A stretch of 64,000 nucleotides of DNA from Candidatus Omnitrophota bacterium (GTDB taxonomy: Bacteria; Omnitrophota; Gorgyraeia; Gygaellales; Profunditerraquicolaceae): contig JAUSED010000003.1 in assembly GCA_030650425.1 (NCBI GenBank), forward strand, positions 71,903 through 135,902, written 5' to 3'. A program made the translations under genes and the position numbers. Positions 6,527-57,886 of this stretch are shown piece after piece. Position 1 is the first letter of the stretch. Each line of letters begins with the position of its first letter. The notes beneath the pieces were generated by a model. It did no database searches and had not been told where the DNA came from. It was given only the letters and a program-made list of their open reading frames with translations.

Positions 6527-6664
6527 ATTCAGGAAAATTCAGGGGACACTTTTCAACCTCTGCAGAAAGGGACACTTTCCGTCAGGGCTCTAACTAGAAC
6601 TTCAAAAGGAAAATGTCCCTTTCTGACGCAAAGGAAAGTGTCCCCTGGACCGTCCCCTGGACGG
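6527..6664. repeat. Nested-palindrome intergenic repeat element, copy A (inverted relative to copies B and C)
   Basis: Contains a 41-bp core 'gggacactttccgtcagggctctaactagaacttcaaaagga' identical to the reverse complement of copies B/C, plus GGGGACACTTTYC 13-mer modules in both orientations. Confidence 0.65.
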
Positions 6665-6675
6665 GTAGGATAAAT

Positions 6676-7818
6676 ATGTTCAACATTATTTTATTAGGCA
6701 TCACCAGTTTATTAACGGATATCTCCAGCGAAATGGTCTATCCTATCCTGCCGGTTTATCTGGTTAGCGTGCTTGGGGCCAGCCCGGCTATCTTGGGTTT
6801 AATTGAAGGTATTGCTGAAAGTCTGGCCAGCCTGCTTAAGGTTTTTTCCGGATATTTCTCGGATAAGGTCAAATTAAGGAAGCCGTTTGCGATATTCGGT
6901 TACGCGGCTTCAACCTTAGGAAAGTTTTTGCTCTTTATCTCTACGGGCTGGGGCTATGTTTTATTGGCCAGGGTAGTTGATCGTTTCGGAAAAGGGGTGC
7001 GCGTTGCTCCGCGCGATGCCCTTATCGCGGAGAGCAGCCCTGAGGGAAAAAGAGGAGCGGCCTTTGGTTTACACCGGGCAATGGATACCGCGGGAGCGGC
7101 CATCGGAGTTTTGTGCGCCTATTTTCTGATTACCCGTTACAAGGGCGAGTTTAAAAATATTTTTCTCCTTTCGCTGATACCGGCAGCCTTAGCCGTATTC
7201 ATCCTTTTTTTAGTCAAAGAAAAAAAGACCCGGCCGAAACAAGCGGCCGAAAAGATCAAATTTAAGTGGAAGGCGCTGGATAAAAGATTAAAACTCTTTT
7301 TTATCTTCACATTTATATTTACCCTGGGTAATTCTTCTAATCAATTTTTGCTTTTACGCGCCCAAAATTTGGGTAATCCCTTACCCACAGTTATTTTGCT
7401 ATATCTTGTTTATAATTTAAGCTACGCCCTTGTCGCCTATCCGGCTTCGCGCCTTTCAGATAAAATAGGGAGGAAGAAACTGCTGGTTTTGGGTTATCTA
7501 TTCTACGGCTTGGTTTATCTGGGTTTTGCCGTAAATAAATCCCCGCATAACTTCTGGTTTTTATTCGCCATTTACGGTTTGTATATCGGTTTTACCGAGG
7601 GCGTGGAAAAGGCGCTGGTGAGCGATATCGCGCCGCCGGAGCTGCGCGCCACAGCTATCGGCTTGCATGCTACGTTAATAGGCATCGGTTTATTCCCGGC
7701 GTCTTTATTGGCAGGCCTGCTTTGGAAGTTTATCGGCCCGCAAGCGGCATTTTATTTCGGCAGCCTGATGGGGTTAGCGGCGAGTATCGGTTTTTGGCGG
7801 GTTTTGAAAGGACTCTAA
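6676..7818 (+). CDS. MFS transporter
   Basis: 12-TM-like hydrophobic profile; 'DRFGKG' MFS loop motif; start moved to the ATG at 6676 (SD 'agga') because the ORF-track start lies inside the repeat. Confidence 0.75.
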   Translation: MFNIILLGITSLLTDISSEMVYPILPVYLVSVLGASPAILGLIEGIAESLASLLKVFSGYFSDKVKLRKPFAIFGYAASTLGKFLLFISTGWGYVLLARVVDRFGKGVRVAPRDALIAESSPEGKRGAAFGLHRAMDTAGAAIGVLCAYFLITRYKGEFKNIFLLSLIPAALAVFILFLVKEKKTRPKQAAEKIKFKWKALDKRLKLFFIFTFIFTLGNSSNQFLLLRAQNLGNPLPTVILLYLVYNLSYALVAYPASRLSDKIGRKKLLVLGYLFYGLVYLGFAVNKSPHNFWFLFAIYGLYIGFTEGVEKALVSDIAPPELRATAIGLHATLIGIGLFPASLLAGLLWKFIGPQAAFYFGSLMGLAASIGFWRVLKGL

Positions 7819-7838
7819 AATTTGAAAGGATTATAAAT

Positions 7839-9230
7839 ATGTTAAGAAAAAAAATTATTCTGACACTCTTGGTTATCTACCTTACAGCTGGGAGAGGTTT
7901 GGCTTGGGCGCAGGAGATGGGTAAAATCGAGGCCTTTACACAGTTAGATCGGGTGCTTATACTCGCTCCGCACCCGGATGACGAAAGTATCGCCTGCGCC
8001 GGCATAATTCAACAGGCAAAAAAAGCAGGCGCGGAAGTAAGGGTGCTTTATTTGACCAACGGCGATAATAATGAGTTTGCCTTTATTGTTTACGAGAAAA
8101 GGCTGACTTTTAAGAAAGGCGAATTTATTCATATGGGGCAGGTGCGCCGGCAGGAAGCCGTTAAGGCTATGAAATTGCTTGGAGTGGATGAAAACAAACT
8201 CGTATTTTTAGGTTATCCTGATTTTGGCACTTTCGCCATCTTTAGCAAATATTGGCAGAAAAATAAGCCGTTTAGAAGCATGCTTACGCGGGTAACCAGT
8301 GTACCTTATAAAAACGACTTGTCTTTCGGCGCCCCGTATATTGGAGAAAGCATTTTGAATGATCTGGATAAAATTATCCTTGATTACAAGCCGACAAAGA
8401 TTTTTGTTTCGCATCCGGCGGATTTAAACGTGGATCACCGGGCGCTCTATTTATTCCTACAAATATCTTTGCGGGGTTTAAGAAATAAAATACCCCAGCC
8501 GAAAGTCTATGCTTATTTGGTCCACACTAAAGGCTGGCCGAAACCCCGGCATTATCATCCTGAGTTGAAGCTAGAGCCGCCGAAGAGTTTCGCGGATTCT
8601 CAAATTAACTGGTCAAGGCTTGATTTAACTCCGGAAGCGCTGGAGCGCAAACACCAATCTATCCTTTGCTATAAGAGCCAGACACAATCAAGCGCTTTTT
8701 ATCTCTTGTCCTTTGCACGAGCTAATGAATTATTCGGGGATTATCCCGAAATTGAATTGAGCAGGCAGGTTTCTCTCAAGGAGCGCGCTCCCGCGTTCTT
8801 TGGTTTCTCTAAGATGTATGCCGGCTCAAGCGCCGAAGACGTTCCTGCCGATGATAACCTGATCGAAGGGGAAGGAGAGGTAGGCTATGCCATAGTGGAT
8901 AACTGCCTGCTTATCCGCGCGGCCAAAGATAAGGGATTGACCCGCAGGTTAAATTTAATACTTTATATTTTCGGATTTAGCGATAAAACTGATTTTGCCT
9001 CTATGCCTAAAATACGCGTGCTCACCCGCCGCGGAAAATTTAGAGTTTACGACGGAAAAAGAATGATTAATCCGGAGGGAACCCGTTTGAATTTAAGCCC
9101 GGACGGTTTAGTCTTACATATACCGCTGGCTATTCTGGGCAATCCTGATTTTATACTTACTTCGGTAAGGGCCTACGGAGGAAAACTTAGCCCGGCTGCC
9201 ACAGGTTTTCGCAGGATAGTCATTAAATAA
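7839..9230 (+). CDS. Secreted PIG-L/LmbE family deacetylase with C-terminal domain of unknown function
   Basis: Signal peptide 'MLRKKIILTLLVIYLTAGRGLAWA'; 'LAPHPDDESIACAG' zinc-deacetylase motif; start trimmed from 7722. Confidence 0.6.
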   Translation: MLRKKIILTLLVIYLTAGRGLAWAQEMGKIEAFTQLDRVLILAPHPDDESIACAGIIQQAKKAGAEVRVLYLTNGDNNEFAFIVYEKRLTFKKGEFIHMGQVRRQEAVKAMKLLGVDENKLVFLGYPDFGTFAIFSKYWQKNKPFRSMLTRVTSVPYKNDLSFGAPYIGESILNDLDKIILDYKPTKIFVSHPADLNVDHRALYLFLQISLRGLRNKIPQPKVYAYLVHTKGWPKPRHYHPELKLEPPKSFADSQINWSRLDLTPEALERKHQSILCYKSQTQSSAFYLLSFARANELFGDYPEIELSRQVSLKERAPAFFGFSKMYAGSSAEDVPADDNLIEGEGEVGYAIVDNCLLIRAAKDKGLTRRLNLILYIFGFSDKTDFASMPKIRVLTRRGKFRVYDGKRMINPEGTRLNLSPDGLVLHIPLAILGNPDFILTSVRAYGGKLSPAATGFRRIVIK

Positions 9231-9265
9231 ACGGTGAATGTGACAAGGTAAAAGGAGCGATTGCC

Positions 9266-9751
9266 ATGCTGGAACTAAAATTAATTGAAATAAAGAAACC
9301 GGAAGATGTCAATTTAATCTTGGGGCAGAGCCATTTTATTAAAACAGTAGAAGATATTTATGAGGTTTTGGTGAATAACGTCCCGGGTATAAAATTCGGT
9401 TTGGCTTTTGTTGAGTCAAGCGGCGCCTGTAAGGTCAGGGTTGAAGGGAACGATCCGGAGTTAAAAGAGCTTGCCGCGAAGAACAGCCTTGAAATAGGAG
9501 CAGGGCATTCCTTTATTATCCTTATGCGGAATGCCTTTCCGATCAATGTGCTTAACGGGATCAAGAATATTCCGGAAGTATGCAATATATACTGCGCAAC
9601 AGCCAATCCCTTAAAAGTTATTCTGGCTCAAACAGAAGATGGCTCCGGGATACTTGGGGTAATTGACGGCGCCAGTCCTAAGGGGATAGAGGATCAGGCG
9701 GATATGGCCTGGCGTAAAGATTTCTTGCGTAAAGTCGGATATAAGCTATAA
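9266..9751 (+). CDS. Conserved small protein, PF04008-like (adenosine-specific kinase family); tentative
   Basis: ~160 aa with conserved blocks 'GQSHFIKTVEDIYE', 'GAGHSFII', 'NAFPINVLN' recalled from that family; similarity judged from memory. Confidence 0.3.
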   Translation: MLELKLIEIKKPEDVNLILGQSHFIKTVEDIYEVLVNNVPGIKFGLAFVESSGACKVRVEGNDPELKELAAKNSLEIGAGHSFIILMRNAFPINVLNGIKNIPEVCNIYCATANPLKVILAQTEDGSGILGVIDGASPKGIEDQADMAWRKDFLRKVGYKL

Positions 9752-9802
9752 TCTTTCTTGCAAATTAAGGCCGCGTTGGTATAATTTATTCGAAAAGGAA
9801 GT

Positions 9803-10720
9803 ATGGATTTTAAAAAAATACGTAAAAGTGCCCTTCGGTTTCTCAGTTGGGTTGGCTTAACCGCGAGTTCTTTGATCATTAAGCTTATTCCGGCTTGTTT
9901 ACTCTATAAGTTTGCGGATATAGTGAGTTTCTTGGCCTATCGATTCGCCGTTAAACAAAGGCAGGTTGCTTTGGAAAGCTTGGCTATTGCTTTTGGCCAA
10001 GATAAAACTAAAGAGCAAATGGAGCGGATTGCCAGAGATTGCTTTATTTTTATGGCTAAATCAGCGGTAGAGTTGATGTTTCTTATGGACAAGCCGCTTA
10101 TCTTAAAAGAGCGCGTCAGCATAGAAGGCCGGGAAAACTTAGACCTTGCTTTAACCGGTGGATGCGGCGTAATTTTGGTCAGCGCGCACTTCGGTAATTT
10201 TCCGCTCCTGCTCGGAAGATTGGCGGTCGGGGGCTACAAGGCTGCCGGAATTATGAAACCGATGCATGATGCGCGGGTGGAAAAGATTTTTTTGGAAAAA
10301 CGCAATAAATTCGGGGTAAAGACCATCTATAGCCAACCGCGCGATGTGTGCGTGAATAATACGATACAGGCTTTACGCAACAATGAACTGGTTTTTATCC
10401 CTATCGATCAGAATTTTGGGAGTGGAGGGGTATTCGTTACTTTTTTTGGCAAAAAAGCAGCCACTGCCGCCGGCCCGATAATCTTGTCGCAGCGCACGCA
10501 TGCCGCGCTTTTACCCTGTTTTATTATCAGGCAGCCTGACGATACGCATAAGATTATTTTTGAACCGGCATTAAAATTAGAAGAAGGAGAAAATTCTCAA
10601 GATACAATTCTGATCAATACCCAGAAATTGACCAATATTATAGAGGCGTATATCCGTAAATACCCTGCGGAGTGGGGATGGATCCACCGCAGATGGAAGA
10701 GGCAACCTGAGGAGGTGTGA
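9803..10720 (+). CDS. Lipid A biosynthesis acyltransferase, LpxL/HtrB family
   Basis: N-terminal TM anchor; 'SAHFGNFP' HX4D-like acyltransferase motif; length ~300 aa. Confidence 0.6.
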   Translation: MDFKKIRKSALRFLSWVGLTASSLIIKLIPACLLYKFADIVSFLAYRFAVKQRQVALESLAIAFGQDKTKEQMERIARDCFIFMAKSAVELMFLMDKPLILKERVSIEGRENLDLALTGGCGVILVSAHFGNFPLLLGRLAVGGYKAAGIMKPMHDARVEKIFLEKRNKFGVKTIYSQPRDVCVNNTIQALRNNELVFIPIDQNFGSGGVFVTFFGKKAATAAGPIILSQRTHAALLPCFIIRQPDDTHKIIFEPALKLEEGENSQDTILINTQKLTNIIEAYIRKYPAEWGWIHRRWKRQPEEV

Positions 10721-10722
10721 CA

Positions 10723-10923
10723 ATGGCGGAAGAAACGAAGAATCTTGACGCAAAGAAGGGCTTGGCTGCTTTTTTCAAAGTTATTTTGGGGCTTATTTTC
10801 CTAATATTAGGAGGAGCGGCTATTTTAAGCTGGTGGGGTTTTCTCCTTATGATCATTAAAGGATGCATCGGTTTGTTCTTGGTCTTGGCAGGGATAATCA
10901 CCTTGGCGATAGCTAAAGAATAA
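10723..10923 (+). CDS. Small two-TM membrane protein
   Basis: Strong SD 'gaggagg' 7 nt upstream of the ATG at 10723; hydrophobic 66 aa. Confidence 0.45.
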   Translation: MAEETKNLDAKKGLAAFFKVILGLIFLILGGAAILSWWGFLLMIIKGCIGLFLVLAGIITLAIAKE

Positions 10924-10929
10924 AAACAT

Positions 10930-11067
10930 GGGACCGTTTCTATCTTTCCAGGGTAGGTGCGCTCAGGGGACACTTTTCTCACAGCAGTAGGGGACACTTT
11001 CCTTTTGAAGTTCTAGTTAGAGCCCTGACGGAAAGTGTCCCCTTCAGGGGAAAATAGAAGCGTCCCC
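10930..11067. repeat. Nested-palindrome intergenic repeat element, copy B
   Basis: Shares an ~85-bp identical stretch with copy C (gctcaggggacacttttctcacagcagtaggggacactttcc...ggaaagtgtcccc); imperfect terminal IRs gggaccgtttctat / atagaagcgtcccc. Confidence 0.7.
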
Positions 11068-11088
11068 TTTTTGCTATCTTGACAAAGG

Positions 11089-11117
11089 TTATTGCCCGTG
11101 GTAATATATTTTTTATG
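11089..11117 (+). promoter_or_regulatory. Sigma70-like promoter TTGACA-17-TAATAT
   Basis: 'cttgacaaaggttattgcccgtggtaatat' upstream of the SD GAGGAGG and the ATG at 11130. Confidence 0.4.
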
Positions 11118-11129
11118 AGGAGGTGTACT

Positions 11130-11624
11130 ATGAGGATAAAAATAACCGTAATCTTAGTATTATCAATATTGGTAAGCGCCGGTTTAGCTTTAAGCGAGGA
11201 TAGCGCAGGGACTCAGGCAACAAGCGCTCCTGCCTTGCCGGAAAGCAGTGATTCCAGTACACAATGGGTCTGGGGCGAGGTTGTAAACGTAGATAGCCTT
11301 GGTAAGGCGTTTACGCTTAAATATCTTGATTATGAGACTGATCAGGAGAAGGAATTATCTCTGACCGTGGATGACGCGACCAGTTATCAGAATTTTAAAT
11401 CTTTAGATGATATTCAGCCAAAAGATAATTTAAGCATTGATTATATCGCCAAAGACGGTAAGAACATTGCTAAGAGTATAAGTCTCGAGAAAACCGAAAG
11501 CGCCTCCTTAGAGAATAAAACAGAGACAGACGCAGCTAGCCCGGAAGCTGTTCAACCAGCGGCTACTCCACAAGCAGGGAGTACCGGCGCAGAGAAGCCG
11601 GAAACATCTGCTCAAACTAATTAA
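11130..11624 (+). CDS. Secreted hypothetical protein with low-complexity C-terminus
   Basis: Signal peptide MRIKITVILVLSILVSAGLALS; SD GAGGAGG; start trimmed from 11079. Confidence 0.55.
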   Translation: MRIKITVILVLSILVSAGLALSEDSAGTQATSAPALPESSDSSTQWVWGEVVNVDSLGKAFTLKYLDYETDQEKELSLTVDDATSYQNFKSLDDIQPKDNLSIDYIAKDGKNIAKSISLEKTESASLENKTETDAASPEAVQPAATPQAGSTGAEKPETSAQTN

Positions 11625-11634
11625 TAAAAAGCTA

Positions 11635-11789
11635 GGGGACGGTTCTATTTTTTCCCGCTCAGGGGACACTTTTCTCACAGCAGTAGGGGACACTTTCCTT
11701 TTGAAGTTCTAGTTAGAGCCCTGACGGAAAGTGTCCCCTAGTTGTGAGTTAGGAAAGTGTCCCCTTCAGGGAAAAATAGAACCGTCCCC
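11635..11789. repeat. Nested-palindrome intergenic repeat element, copy C (most complete, perfect 18-bp TIRs)
   Basis: TIRs 'ggggacggttctattttt' / 'aaaaatagaaccgtcccc'; internal 4x GGGGACACTTTCC modules (2 forward, 2 reverse) around a 30-nt core. Confidence 0.7.
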
Positions 11790-11799
11790 ATTTATTCTG

Positions 11800-12507
11800 A
11801 TGAAACTTAAATGGTTTTTGATTACGGGATGCATTATTCCGGTTTTAGCCTTAACGGGCTGCGCGGTTTTGAAGAAGCCTGTCCAGCTGGTCGATCGATT
11901 TATCGGTTCTACCCTCTTTCCTCCTTATTCCGGCCCAAAGGCAAGCGTGGTCGTCGCTGATTTTGAGATCAAGACCGCTAATCTCACTACGGAGGTGAAC
12001 ACCGGATTACGCGATATGTTAATAGAAGGCCTAAATAAGACCAATCGTTTTTTAGCAGTCTCCGCGCCTAAAGATCACCTTGAAAATAACGCCGGATTAA
12101 TCATCGCGGTTGAAGTAACAAATTTTGATCCGCTGATATCAGGCGGGAGCGAAGGGGTTGGCGGCGGTGGAAGCGCTGCCAGCGGAACCCTGGGTTCTTT
12201 ATTGGGCGTGGTTACCAACAAATCAACCATAGTTTTGAATATCCGTGTTGTTGACGCGGCATCGTCGAAAGTATTATTTTCGGAGCGCCTTAGTGGACAG
12301 GGTGTCGATAGCGAAAGCCTGCGCCGGGGACGTCAGAATAAAGAGACTAGTTTAAATGAAAGCCTGTCTGCTTATGCCAATACGCCTATGGAAGAGGCGA
12401 TTGACAAATGTATTATGGAAGCCGTGAGGTATATCGCGCAGAAGGTTCCGGCAAACTATTATAGAGAGGATAAAAATGGGAAAGCGCAAACGCAGGGGAA
12501 AACTTAA
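11800..12507 (+). CDS. CsgG-family lipoprotein (curli production assembly/transport component-like)
   Basis: Lipobox 'ALTGC'; alignment by eye to CsgG blocks 'SGGSEGVGGGG...IVLNIRVVDAASSKVL'; start trimmed from 11731 (in the repeat) to the ATG at 11800. Confidence 0.5.
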   Translation: MKLKWFLITGCIIPVLALTGCAVLKKPVQLVDRFIGSTLFPPYSGPKASVVVADFEIKTANLTTEVNTGLRDMLIEGLNKTNRFLAVSAPKDHLENNAGLIIAVEVTNFDPLISGGSEGVGGGGSAASGTLGSLLGVVTNKSTIVLNIRVVDAASSKVLFSERLSGQGVDSESLRRGRQNKETSLNESLSAYANTPMEEAIDKCIMEAVRYIAQKVPANYYREDKNGKAQTQGKT

Positions 12508-25014: not shown

Positions 25015-25045
25015 AAGGACCGTTTCCTTTCAGGAAACGGTCCTT
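25015..25045 (+). terminator. Hairpin 'aaggaccgtttcc-tttcag-ggaaacggtcctt' (weak T-tract)
   Basis: 13-bp perfect stem; member of the local GGACCGTTTCC terminator family. Confidence 0.4.
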
Positions 25046-35426: not shown

Positions 35427-35612
35427 AAATAAAATTTTAACTATCCTTCAGGCCGGCGCCTTAAAGAACTAATTGCCGCTTGTGTGCAAAAGAAGGAGAT
35501 TAGCGGATATCTGCAAGTTGGAAGAAGAGAACGCTTATGATACTGAGCCGGAGATGAAGGAGGCATTGGTATTTGTGGATACGGTGAGCTAAAATATACA
35601 TAGATGAGGAAA

Positions 35613-35640
35613 AAATGGGGACAGTCCCCATTTTTTAAGG
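35613..35640. terminator. Bidirectional intrinsic terminator (A-run, TGGGGA-CAG-TCCCCA, T-run)
   Basis: Read directly: 6-bp GC-rich stem flanked by A6 and T6. Confidence 0.55.
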
Positions 35641-36042: not shown

Positions 36043-36079
36043 GGGGACGGTTCTATTTTTTAGAACCGTCCCTTTTTTT
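36043..36079. terminator. Bidirectional intrinsic terminator; stem identical to the TIRs of repeat copy C
   Basis: A7-'ggggacggttcta ttttt tagaaccgtccc'-T7. Confidence 0.7.
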
Positions 36080-45182: not shown

Positions 45183-45257
45183 TAATGATGGTTGTATTAG
45201 AGTTACCGTAGCGGACACTTAAGTGTCCGCTACCGGAACTGATTGGATTAGAGGCTA

Positions 45258-49607: not shown

Positions 49608-49611
49608 AGGC

Positions 49612-49668
49612 GAAACAGTTTCCGATCCAAAGCGGAAACTGTTTCCGAGCCAATCGGGAAACAGTTTC
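49612..49668. promoter_or_regulatory. Three tandem palindromes GGAAAC-N-GTTTCC at ~21-22-bp spacing (candidate operator)
   Basis: 'cgaaacagtttccg', 'cggaaactgtttccg', 'gggaaacagtttct' read directly between the hydG-like stop and the ferredoxin start. Confidence 0.4.
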
Positions 49669-49675
49669 TAAGCTT

Positions 49676-57839: not shown

Positions 57840-57886
57840 GGGACCGTTTCCCTGAAGGGAAACGGTCCCTTGTTTGTTTTATTTTT
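57840..57886 (+). terminator. Intrinsic terminator gggaccgtttccc-tgaa-gggaaacggtccc + T-rich tail
   Basis: 13-bp perfect stem read directly. Confidence 0.7.

Follow-up and report, generated by a model that had tools for sequence, protein, structure and literature searches.

Repetitive extragenic palindromic (REP) sequences, including hairpin-forming REP doublets (REPINs), bacterial interspersed mosaic elements (BIMEs) and the REP-associated tyrosine transposases (RAYTs), have to our knowledge been studied almost only in Proteobacteria. In E. coli, REPs bind IHF, gyrase, and Pol I. Among other short repeats, Correia elements have 26-bp terminal inverted repeats (TIRs), a TA duplication and an IHF site, BOX elements consist of boxA, boxB, and boxC modules, and for Rickettsia palindromic elements (RPEs) we know of no partner enzyme. 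The Omnitrophota are an uncultured phylum of very small bacteria with compact genomes. Here, we analyzed three nested palindromic repeats, termed elements A, B and C, in a 64-kb stretch of a metagenome-assembled genome (MAG) of a Candidatus Omnitrophota bacterium (contig JAUSED010000003.1, positions 71,903 to 135,902; 64,000 nt), which is called the window in the following.

REPs have also been described within genes (PMC3733652). Among TnpA-REP proteins, the motif Y-x3-NP marks class 2 of Quentin et al. (PMC6006769). Proteins of subclass 2.1 are long, with a median of 238 aa and a C-terminal helix-turn-helix (HTH) or DnaA-like domain, and GGGGWSAS is a motif common to the TIRs on the flanks of RAYT-like genes (PMC3733652; PMC6006769).

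Elements A, B and C are probably REP/REPIN/BIME-type non-autonomous palindromic repeats of Candidatus Omnitrophota that are moved in trans by a RAYT. We placed them there because of their anatomy, their genomic placement, the lack of duplications, the occasional intragenic copies, and the REPtron-like gene context. The family is real: it is dispersed in other genomes, its presence or absence differs at orthologous sites, and RAYT genes in six relatives lie amid the same modules, which is the REPtron arrangement.

Structure of elements A, B and C

Element A (6527–6664, minus orientation) is located in the intergenic region between lnt and a gene of the major facilitator superfamily (MFS) and is inverted with respect to element B (10930–11067, plus orientation), which follows the stop codon (10923) of a 68-aa open reading frame (ORF), and to element C (11635–11789, plus orientation), the full-length form. 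Reading of the sequence at these positions confirmed the three nested palindromes, which had been proposed in an initial annotation of the window. For the module GGGGACACTTTCC, 11 matches with at most two mismatches were found in the 64-kb window, all 11 within A, B or C, compared to a chance expectation of 1.06 and a maximum of 5 in 100 shuffles. The modules are laid out as two in plus orientation, a loop, and two in minus orientation, with tandem modules 24–26 nt apart. The initial annotation had assigned four 13-mer modules in both orientations to the elements. This applies to A (6542–6554 and 6568–6580, plus; 6608–6620 and 6633–6645, minus; 27-nt loop at 6581–6607) and to C (11662–11674 and 11686–11698, plus; 11726–11738 and 11752–11764, minus; loop at 11699–11725), but not to B, which has three modules (10966–10978 and 10990–11002, plus; 11030–11042, minus; loop at 11003–11029) and lacks one 26-nt unit relative to C.

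All three elements have one and the same 27-nt loop. Elements B and C, located 696 nt apart, share an identical block, previously given as ~85 bp, of exactly 84 nt (10960–11043 and 11656–11739). Also, the 41-bp core said to be present in A in inverted orientation was recovered as a stretch of 61 nt (6565–6625) which is 93% complementary to 10985–11045 in B, with ~44 nt exact by direct reading. The perfect 18-nt TIRs of C were found as described, with GGGGACGGTTCTATTTTT at 11635–11652 in plus and at 11772–11789 in minus orientation. A copy of GGGGACGGTTCTATTTTT with two mismatches is present in B at 11050. The outer arms are imperfect in B (10930–10949 and 11048–11067) and largely absent in A, the ends of which have diverged and include a small additional hairpin (CCGTCC/GGACGG) at 6650–6664. 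The outer arms differ among the three elements; the core is kept.

As RNA, the elements fold into single long hairpins with −102, −61, and −67 kcal/mol (z = −13.3, −3.7, and −5.8), far below shuffled sequences. A simple terminator scan considers loops of up to 8 nt only and cannot score such long nested hairpins. The inner 13-mer pair around the 27-nt loop represents an inverted doublet with hairpin potential in A, B, C, and a fourth copy, D, described below. The two halves of the 13-mer differ by G/A transitions only; in the form GGGGA-CAC-TTTCC they can, on one strand only, close into a mini-hairpin of 5 bp, two of them G-T (G-U), which fits a single-strand mechanism. In the family consensus, GGGG follows an A (74%) and, before that, variable bases that usually pair with the other arm.

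The genome is very compact, with intergenic DNA making up 6% of the window. The gene order is secA, lnt, element A, the MFS transporter gene, the genes for a PIG-L deacetylase and an adenosine kinase, an lpxL-like gene, the 68-aa ORF, element B, the gene for a small secreted protein, element C, a CsgG-like gene and a ZIP transporter gene. The LpxL-like protein has a database match with 100% identity on a 359-kb contig, and an exact entry for Lnt was not found. All genes around the elements are on the plus strand and have housekeeping functions, and each element begins 4–11 nt downstream of a stop codon. On its 3′ side, B is followed by TTTTT and then by a promoter-like site (TTGACA-17-TAATAT, 11079–11107, plus strand), which is located just outside B and is not part of the repeat. 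The initial annotation had placed the N-terminal extensions of three genes within the elements. ATG 6613 falls within A, with the probable true start of that gene at 6676, and GTG 11731 falls within C, with the probable true start at 11800; the third proposed start, TTG 11079, is located just outside B. Furthermore, an ORF on the minus strand (10638–10997) overlaps B. For annotation, this means that the repeats give false N-terminal ORF extensions.

Orthologous sites in related genomes

Two syntenic relatives, one with 91% (L027) and one with 77% (L028/L029) amino acid identity, lack the 13-mer entirely. Site C is occupied in both by a conventional hairpin, GGCAGGGT..ACCCTGCC(T)TT, at the same place with respect to the conserved flanks. 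The link to terminators made in the initial annotation is thereby borne out insofar as C is located exactly at the position of the plain terminator hairpin of its relatives. At site B, the closer relative has 32 nt of unrelated sequence followed by the TTGACA promoter, which is conserved. The empty-site alignments at these two sites, in which the borders are blurred by divergence, revealed no direct repeat at the borders of B or C and thus no target-site duplication. The empty sites and the plain terminator in the relatives argue for a gain of the elements in the lineage of the window, in which the place of the old terminator was taken. For terminator prediction this means that a canonical terminator was replaced by a repeat at no fewer than one site, i.e., at least one.

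Some differences in gene content were noted in the same regions (L028 4969–6057 compared with 5015 in the window, and L028 11203–11769). The MFS gene adjoining A is present only in the lineage of the window and L027. The relative with 77% identity carries a gene pair for an HNH endonuclease and an HTH protein between secA and lnt. It also has a BioY gene after a 66-aa ORF and no MFS gene, and its Lnt is longer and includes a Peptidase_M23 domain.

Copies beyond the window

A fourth copy, D, with a core of the window type and one loop mismatch, was found directly upstream of uvrC, ~4.1 kb before the start of the window (L102 1–51). Short-read contigs of the Logan collection from the same sample (SRR13727527) begin or end within the cores of A, B and D (L113, corresponding to 6617–10989 of the window, L102, and L101), which is how repeated sequence acts on an assembly; the repeat cores thus break short-read contigs of this organism. 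To find copies elsewhere, the pattern GGGACACTTTCC-N10-40-GGAAAGTGTCCC was used. It matched 26 loci in GTDB species genomes, most of them Omnitrophota, and 71 loci in JGI metagenomes (97 in total), and the loci carrying the 13-mer hairpin have GC contents of 36–72%. With these and copy D, the finding named in the initial annotation as the one that would speak against a repeat family, namely copies unique to this locus, was not obtained. In the related Omnitrophota MAG STB_56, the same layout (two modules, loop, two inverted modules) and the period of 24–26 nt recur at no fewer than 13 loci, and a tandem array of four units is also present. Of the Omnitrophota copies checked, the majority lie in intergenic DNA, 4–60 nt past a stop codon. 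Between genomes, the loops differ completely and the stems are kept in sequence, not by covariation. The hairpin had no match in a scan of viral contigs, the window-specific loop had none in a scan of metagenomes, so that the subfamily of the window was extended by Logan contigs only, and literature searches gave unrelated eukaryotic and primer matches only for the 12-mer and nothing on repeats of Omnitrophota.

In one metagenomic locus from another organism (L069), a 13-mer hairpin whose loop differs is enclosed by the outer arm of C together with its inner flank (GGGGACGGTTCTATTTTTcccgc). The initial annotation had noted that the TIR of C equals the stem of the terminator of the cold-shock gene cspA at 36043, and had regarded the elements as terminator hairpins with expanded loops. 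The former is correct: the hairpin after the cold-shock gene (36043–36072, plus strand; GGGGACGGTTCTA-TTTTT-TAGAACCGTCCC, then a T-run) has the identical 18-mer as its 5′ arm, and 25 nt including the flank match to 96%. The latter was not upheld, as the recurrence of GGGGACGGTTCTATTTTTcccgc in L069 indicates that the composite is an inherited design and not a local accident, and a short family member is the better description of the cspA hairpin. Plain GGGGACGGTTC hairpins are present in several other contigs.

A subfamily in high-GC loci (63–72%) has the structure AAAATG-GGGACACTTTCC-ATTTCC-(GC-rich loop)-GGAAAT-GGAAAGTGTCCC-CATTTT, in which AAAT/ATTT flanks extend the dyad of the mini-hairpin; its loci are among L030–L100 (e.g., L059 536–590, L062, and L046 13047–13088). 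Hairpins with the same stem occur in MAGs of Gemmataceae, Planctomycetia, Burkholderiales, and Myxococcales, and the Gemmataceae copies share an ATG prefix. The repeat form AAAATGGGGACACTTTCCATTTCC was linked to genomes of Planctomycetota. In L014 (1457–1609), four identical 26-nt units (GGAAAGTGTCCCCTTCAGCGTGGGGC) are arranged in tandem on one side of a 13-mer hairpin, which shows that the module number grows by tandem duplication; the same locus contains the perfectly palindromic 13-mer GGGACACTGTCCC. This array adjoins a small two-gene pair with a toxin-antitoxin-like appearance.

Hairpins within coding regions of relatives

At three loci of relatives (L015, L023, and L017), the hairpin lies within a long ORF. 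These ORFs represent one Omnitrophota-specific protein family with 54–57% identity. The intragenic hairpins are in-frame, at two different positions, and translated in different reading frames (GHFP..ESVP vs GDTF..KVS). Among 120 listed database homologues, 2 have the hairpin signature and 118 do not; L015 and L017 are two further carriers. At the same site, other homologues carry KGLSPKGTVP, a different pair of modules encoded by GAAGGGACTGTCCCC repeats.

The hairpin-carrying protein (L015 1683–6071, L023 2854–4962, L017 1–702; P0121–P0240) has a ~350-aa N-terminal domain that is specific to Omnitrophota and resembles a signal peptide at its beginning. Depending on the genome, this domain is fused to PGK, PGM, GAPDH_C, enolase_N, HD, HEAT or methyltransferase domains, and the repeat insertions are located at two hot spots.

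Candidate partner transposase

The 150 ORFs located beside hairpins were assigned to 228 Pfam families. The 25 families listed as shared by most neighbors are ordinary cellular families without any transposase or integrase and without DDE or insertion sequence (IS) families. An apparent neighbor "family" from 12 high-GC loci, which overlapped the hairpins, turned out to be only the translated repeat in spurious ORFs. By a motif search of the collected DNA, one ORF of the Y1 HUH type (Y1_Tnp) was detected in L087, at a distance of 170 nt to a bona fide hairpin and with the related words GGAAAGCGTCT and GGAAAGTGTACTTTCC on both of its sides; tblastn of the collected hairpin loci revealed no RAYT outside L087. 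Its protein has 697 homologues of ~161 aa, and all those with a named source bear the label Candidatus Omnitrophota/Omnitrophica. Among NCBIfam models, NF047646 (REP-associated tyrosine transposase) matches best, with 75–100 bits at a cutoff of 80, and the Y-x3-NP motif of class 2 (TnpA-REP) is present. A sequence search of the PDB with the RAYT-like protein gave no match at E ≤ 0.01.

Six independent loci of the gene were analyzed (L087, L103, L104, L108, L111, and L112), and in 6/6 arrays consisting of a module, 10 nt, and an inverted module are located on both flanks. In L103, L104, L108, L111, and L112, these arrays read (c)acaGAC[AG][CT]TTTCC, 10 nt, GGAAA[CG]TGTC.... In four loci counted, the core 10-mer had 15 matches in 2.6 kb of gene flanks vs 3 in the other 21.4 kb, the latter three belonging to one dispersed element. 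P0300, carried on 13 contigs, has the same gene neighbors in each of the three places shown; for P0268 (9 contigs), the neighbors are partly shared among the four places shown. Such constancy suggests a resident RAYT gene rather than a hopping IS. A candidate partner of the IS200/IS605 TnpA type, for which the initial annotation had proposed a search, was thereby found in Omnitrophota as a RAYT-type Y1 family flanked by the same modules. The start of the module, GGGGACAC, fits the motif GGGGWSAS, and hairpins of (C)ACAGACACTTTCC and of GGGGACACTTTCC are candidate substrates of the ~161-aa Omnitrophota RAYT.

In L111 (3001–3501), from the distant Omnitrophota genome GCA_043814965.1, the gene order is secA-lnt-RAYT, and the RAYT gene immediately follows lnt on its downstream side, at the place of element A in the window. 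By its position, A might be a remnant of a REPtron; the match may also be a coincidence, as the Lnt proteins are only 44% identical.

Related hairpins elsewhere in the window

The word GGGGAC is ~9-fold enriched in the intergenic DNA of the window, and most of its strong terminator-like hairpins are built of GGGGAC/GGGAC words (25015, 34769, 35610, 36043, and 57840), with related words also used at 45201. A-runs and T-runs border several of these hairpins, as in bidirectional terminators. They include a hairpin at 25015–25045 (AAGGACCGTTTCCT-TTC-AGGAAACGGTCCTT), a palindrome at 35610–35636 (AAAAAATGGGGAC-A-GTCCCCATTTTTT), and a terminator-like hairpin at 57840–57869 (GGGACCGTTTCCC-TGAA-GGGAAACGGTCCC), to the word family of which the beginning of the left arm of B (GGGACCGTTTC) also belongs. 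A near-perfect palindrome of 20 + 20 nt (AGTTACCGTAGCGGACACTT/AAGTGTCCGCTACCGGAACT) at 45201–45240, in an intergenic gap of 78 nt, contains the 13-mer core GGACACTT/AAGTGTCC plus a GTAG.

An array of three palindromic 13-mers, (C)GAAACAGTTTCC, GGAAACTGTTTCC, and GGAAACAGTTTCT, with 10-nt spacers is located at 49610–49669 in an intergenic gap of 76 nt. Its design (module, 10 nt, module) is the same as that of the repeats flanking the RAYT genes in relatives. The gap lies between two co-directional redox genes, and alternative pairing of 1:2 or 2:3 is possible. Words of this array (GGAAAC[A/T]GTTTCC) recur in L002 and L014 within or beside 13-mer elements. A tRNA scan of the window gave no hit. 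Other known kinds of sites were also compared with the elements and rejected by their sequence features alone: integron attC sites (no R′/R″ boxes; the genes are syntenic and housekeeping), parS or dif-like sites (consensus not matched), DNA uptake sequences (density far too low and matches confined to the elements), and CRISPR-like arrays (the "spacers" are identical).

Proposed propagation and alternative explanations

As REP/REPIN/BIME-type repeats, the elements would have GGGGACACTTTCC as their unit, and two inverted copies around a short asymmetric loop would form a REPIN-like hairpin. More copies at the period of 24–26 nt together with the outer arm pair GGGGACGGTTCTATTTTT would then result in BIME-like nested palindromes. 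By analogy with E. coli TnpA-REP and IS200/IS608, propagation would be carried out in trans by a single-copy RAYT (Y1 HUH), which may act on the hairpin in single-stranded DNA, leaving no target-site duplication. Such a RAYT would be present in this genome and would move the copies, which would settle just past stop codons. Judging from position and stability, the very stable hairpins could replace an intrinsic terminator or serve as a 3′ stabilizer of the mRNA, and neighboring copies may be homogenized by duplication or gene conversion.

Several observations weigh against this assignment. No RAYT was found in the 64-kb window or in ~5 kb of added flank by tblastn with 120 RAYT homologues; as far as RAYT homologues are concerned, the statement of the initial annotation that there is no transposase is in line with this result. 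In the ~68 kb of this genome that were covered, only four copies are present, all of them intergenic and within 16 kb, and the identity of B and C over 84 nt might reflect a local event. The modules adjoining the RAYT genes are mostly (c)acaGAC[AG][CT]TTTCC and not GGGGACACTTTCC, with CACA as the most frequent preceding bases, and the exact 12-mer is present beside the gene in only 2/6 loci (L087 and L112). Also, the unit is shorter than a classical REP, being a 13-mer quasi-palindrome with G-T pairs instead of an imperfect palindrome of 20–40 nt, and an unpaired 5′ GTAG/CGTC tag is not constant, as GTAG precedes the inner module in B and C only. Finally, the 3′ ends are not uniform: B is followed by the T5 run, C by ATTTATT only, and A by no T-run.

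Some of these points would be accounted for if ordinary intrinsic terminators had grown by local tandem and inverted duplication plus gene conversion without any mobilizing enzyme, the likeness among loci reflecting a lineage-specific terminator design. The position right after stop codons, the replacement of the relatives' terminator by C, the T5 after B, the intergenic enrichment of GGGGAC with most strong hairpins using GGAC words, the short distance between the identical blocks of B and C, and the existence of tandem unit arrays as in L014 all agree with such growth. We nevertheless consider it unlikely, because it does not explain why the asymmetric 27-nt loop is the same in A, B and C (one mismatch in D) with one copy inverted, why an exact 12–13-mer is common to organisms with 36–72% GC, how in-frame coding insertions arose in different frames, or why modules are tightly clustered around RAYT genes. 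Very improbable, in our view, is an origin as a miniature inverted-repeat transposable element (MITE) or Correia-type element, i.e., as a deletion derivative of a cut-and-paste IS with TIRs recognized by a DDE transposase and with target-site duplication. The initial annotation had left the choice between MITE, REP/BIME, and Correia elements; of these, only REP/BIME stood up to the comparison. The perfect 18-nt TIRs of C, the recurrence of TIR and inner flank in L069 around another loop, and the size of 138–155 nt without coding capacity are points in favor of a MITE. Against it, B and C have no direct duplication when compared with the two empty sites, the outer arms of A and B are diverged or different with a conserved core, and the conserved unit is the internal 13-mer, present three to four times, and not the ends. 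Moreover, no DDE or IS family is among the 25 listed most-shared Pfam families (the window was searched for RAYT homologues only), and the only associated enzyme found is the Y1 HUH protein.

The two remaining explanations do not require mobility. The 13-mers GGRRAC-N-GTYYCC could form a binding-site array for a nucleoid-associated protein or a dimeric regulator, a protein-binding array having also been considered in the initial annotation; in that case, hairpin formation would be of secondary importance. E. coli REPs are known targets of IHF, gyrase, and Pol I. The regular module spacing of 24–26 nt and the related perfectly palindromic 13-mers (49610–49669; GGGACACTGTCCC in L014) would suit such an array. 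We regard it as highly improbable, since the copies are not tied to any class of downstream genes and occur in both orientations and within coding DNA, no candidate protein is known, and the half-sites differ only by transitions which keep G-T/G-U pairing on one strand, which speaks for a single-strand hairpin and against a duplex operator. A riboswitch-like element or another structured RNA (regulatory or small) transcribed from the intergenic regions, for which the very stable folds and the conserved loop of the window copies might speak, deserves hardly any credence: a covariance scan of the window with Rfam at the gathering threshold gave no match, A is inverted despite the plus-strand orientation of all flanking genes, and between genomes the loops are wholly different with stems kept by sequence and not by covariation.

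Taken as RAYT-mobilized repeats, the elements extend the scope of REP-RAYT systems to the Omnitrophota, i.e., a familiar kind of element to a little-studied phylum, with a recognition core that is unusually short, modular, and widely shared and with candidate enzymes of ~161 aa identified. A more far-reaching idea, which we put forward tentatively and with considerable doubt, is that a single REP core (GGGGACACTTTCC) was retained, or passed on horizontally, together with its RAYT lineage across Omnitrophota, Planctomycetota, and other phyla (36–72% GC), with the wobble positions kept as a strand-discriminating mini-hairpin and the core colonizing terminator hairpins and, in-frame, coding DNA. 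If true, a REP-RAYT recognition sequence would be conserved far deeper than the known species- or genus-specific REPs, and a natural system would be available to study how RAYT specificity is read out.

Comparison with known repeat systems

The RPEs resemble the hairpins described here as palindromes which are located between genes and also in-frame in conserved genes, where they add 15–30 residues without breaking the frame. They differ in that there is no sequence relation and that intragenic copies were found here only in relatives and not in the window. Pneumococcal BOX elements and Correia elements or neisserial intergenic mosaic elements (NIMEs) are likewise modular with a variable number of internal units, form long hairpins in transcripts, and are located at gene ends, but none of their sequence features is present here.

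Closer are the TIRtrons of the TIRYT proteins (RAYT group 1, TnpA-REP subclass 2.1; PMC3733652, PMC6006769). Their motif GGGG[AT][CG]A[CG] is matched by GGGGACAC, the repeats occur as singles, dimers, and groups, and the distribution over phyla is broad and includes Planctomycetes. The Omnitrophota proteins, in contrast, have ~161 aa and consist of Y1_Tnp only, with no C-terminal tail, as judged by a comparison of features.

With the REP/REPIN-RAYT systems and BIMEs of E. coli, Pseudomonas, and Stenotrophomonas (Nunvar 2010; Bertels & Rainey 2011; Di Nocera 2013, PMC3733652), the differences besides unit length are the lack of a constant unpaired GTAG/CGTC tag, the module order with two plus and two minus copies around a loop within an outer arm pair instead of alternating orientation, and the occurrence of the same core across very different GC contents, in Omnitrophota hosts not reported in that literature. 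The agreement comprises extragenic palindromic units present as singlets, as hairpin-forming inverted doublets, and in clusters, their location downstream of genes between co-directional ORFs, insertion without target-site duplication, and occasional intragenic copies. In six related Omnitrophota loci, it extends to a resident gene for a Y1 HUH enzyme with the same repeats on either side, as in a REPtron.

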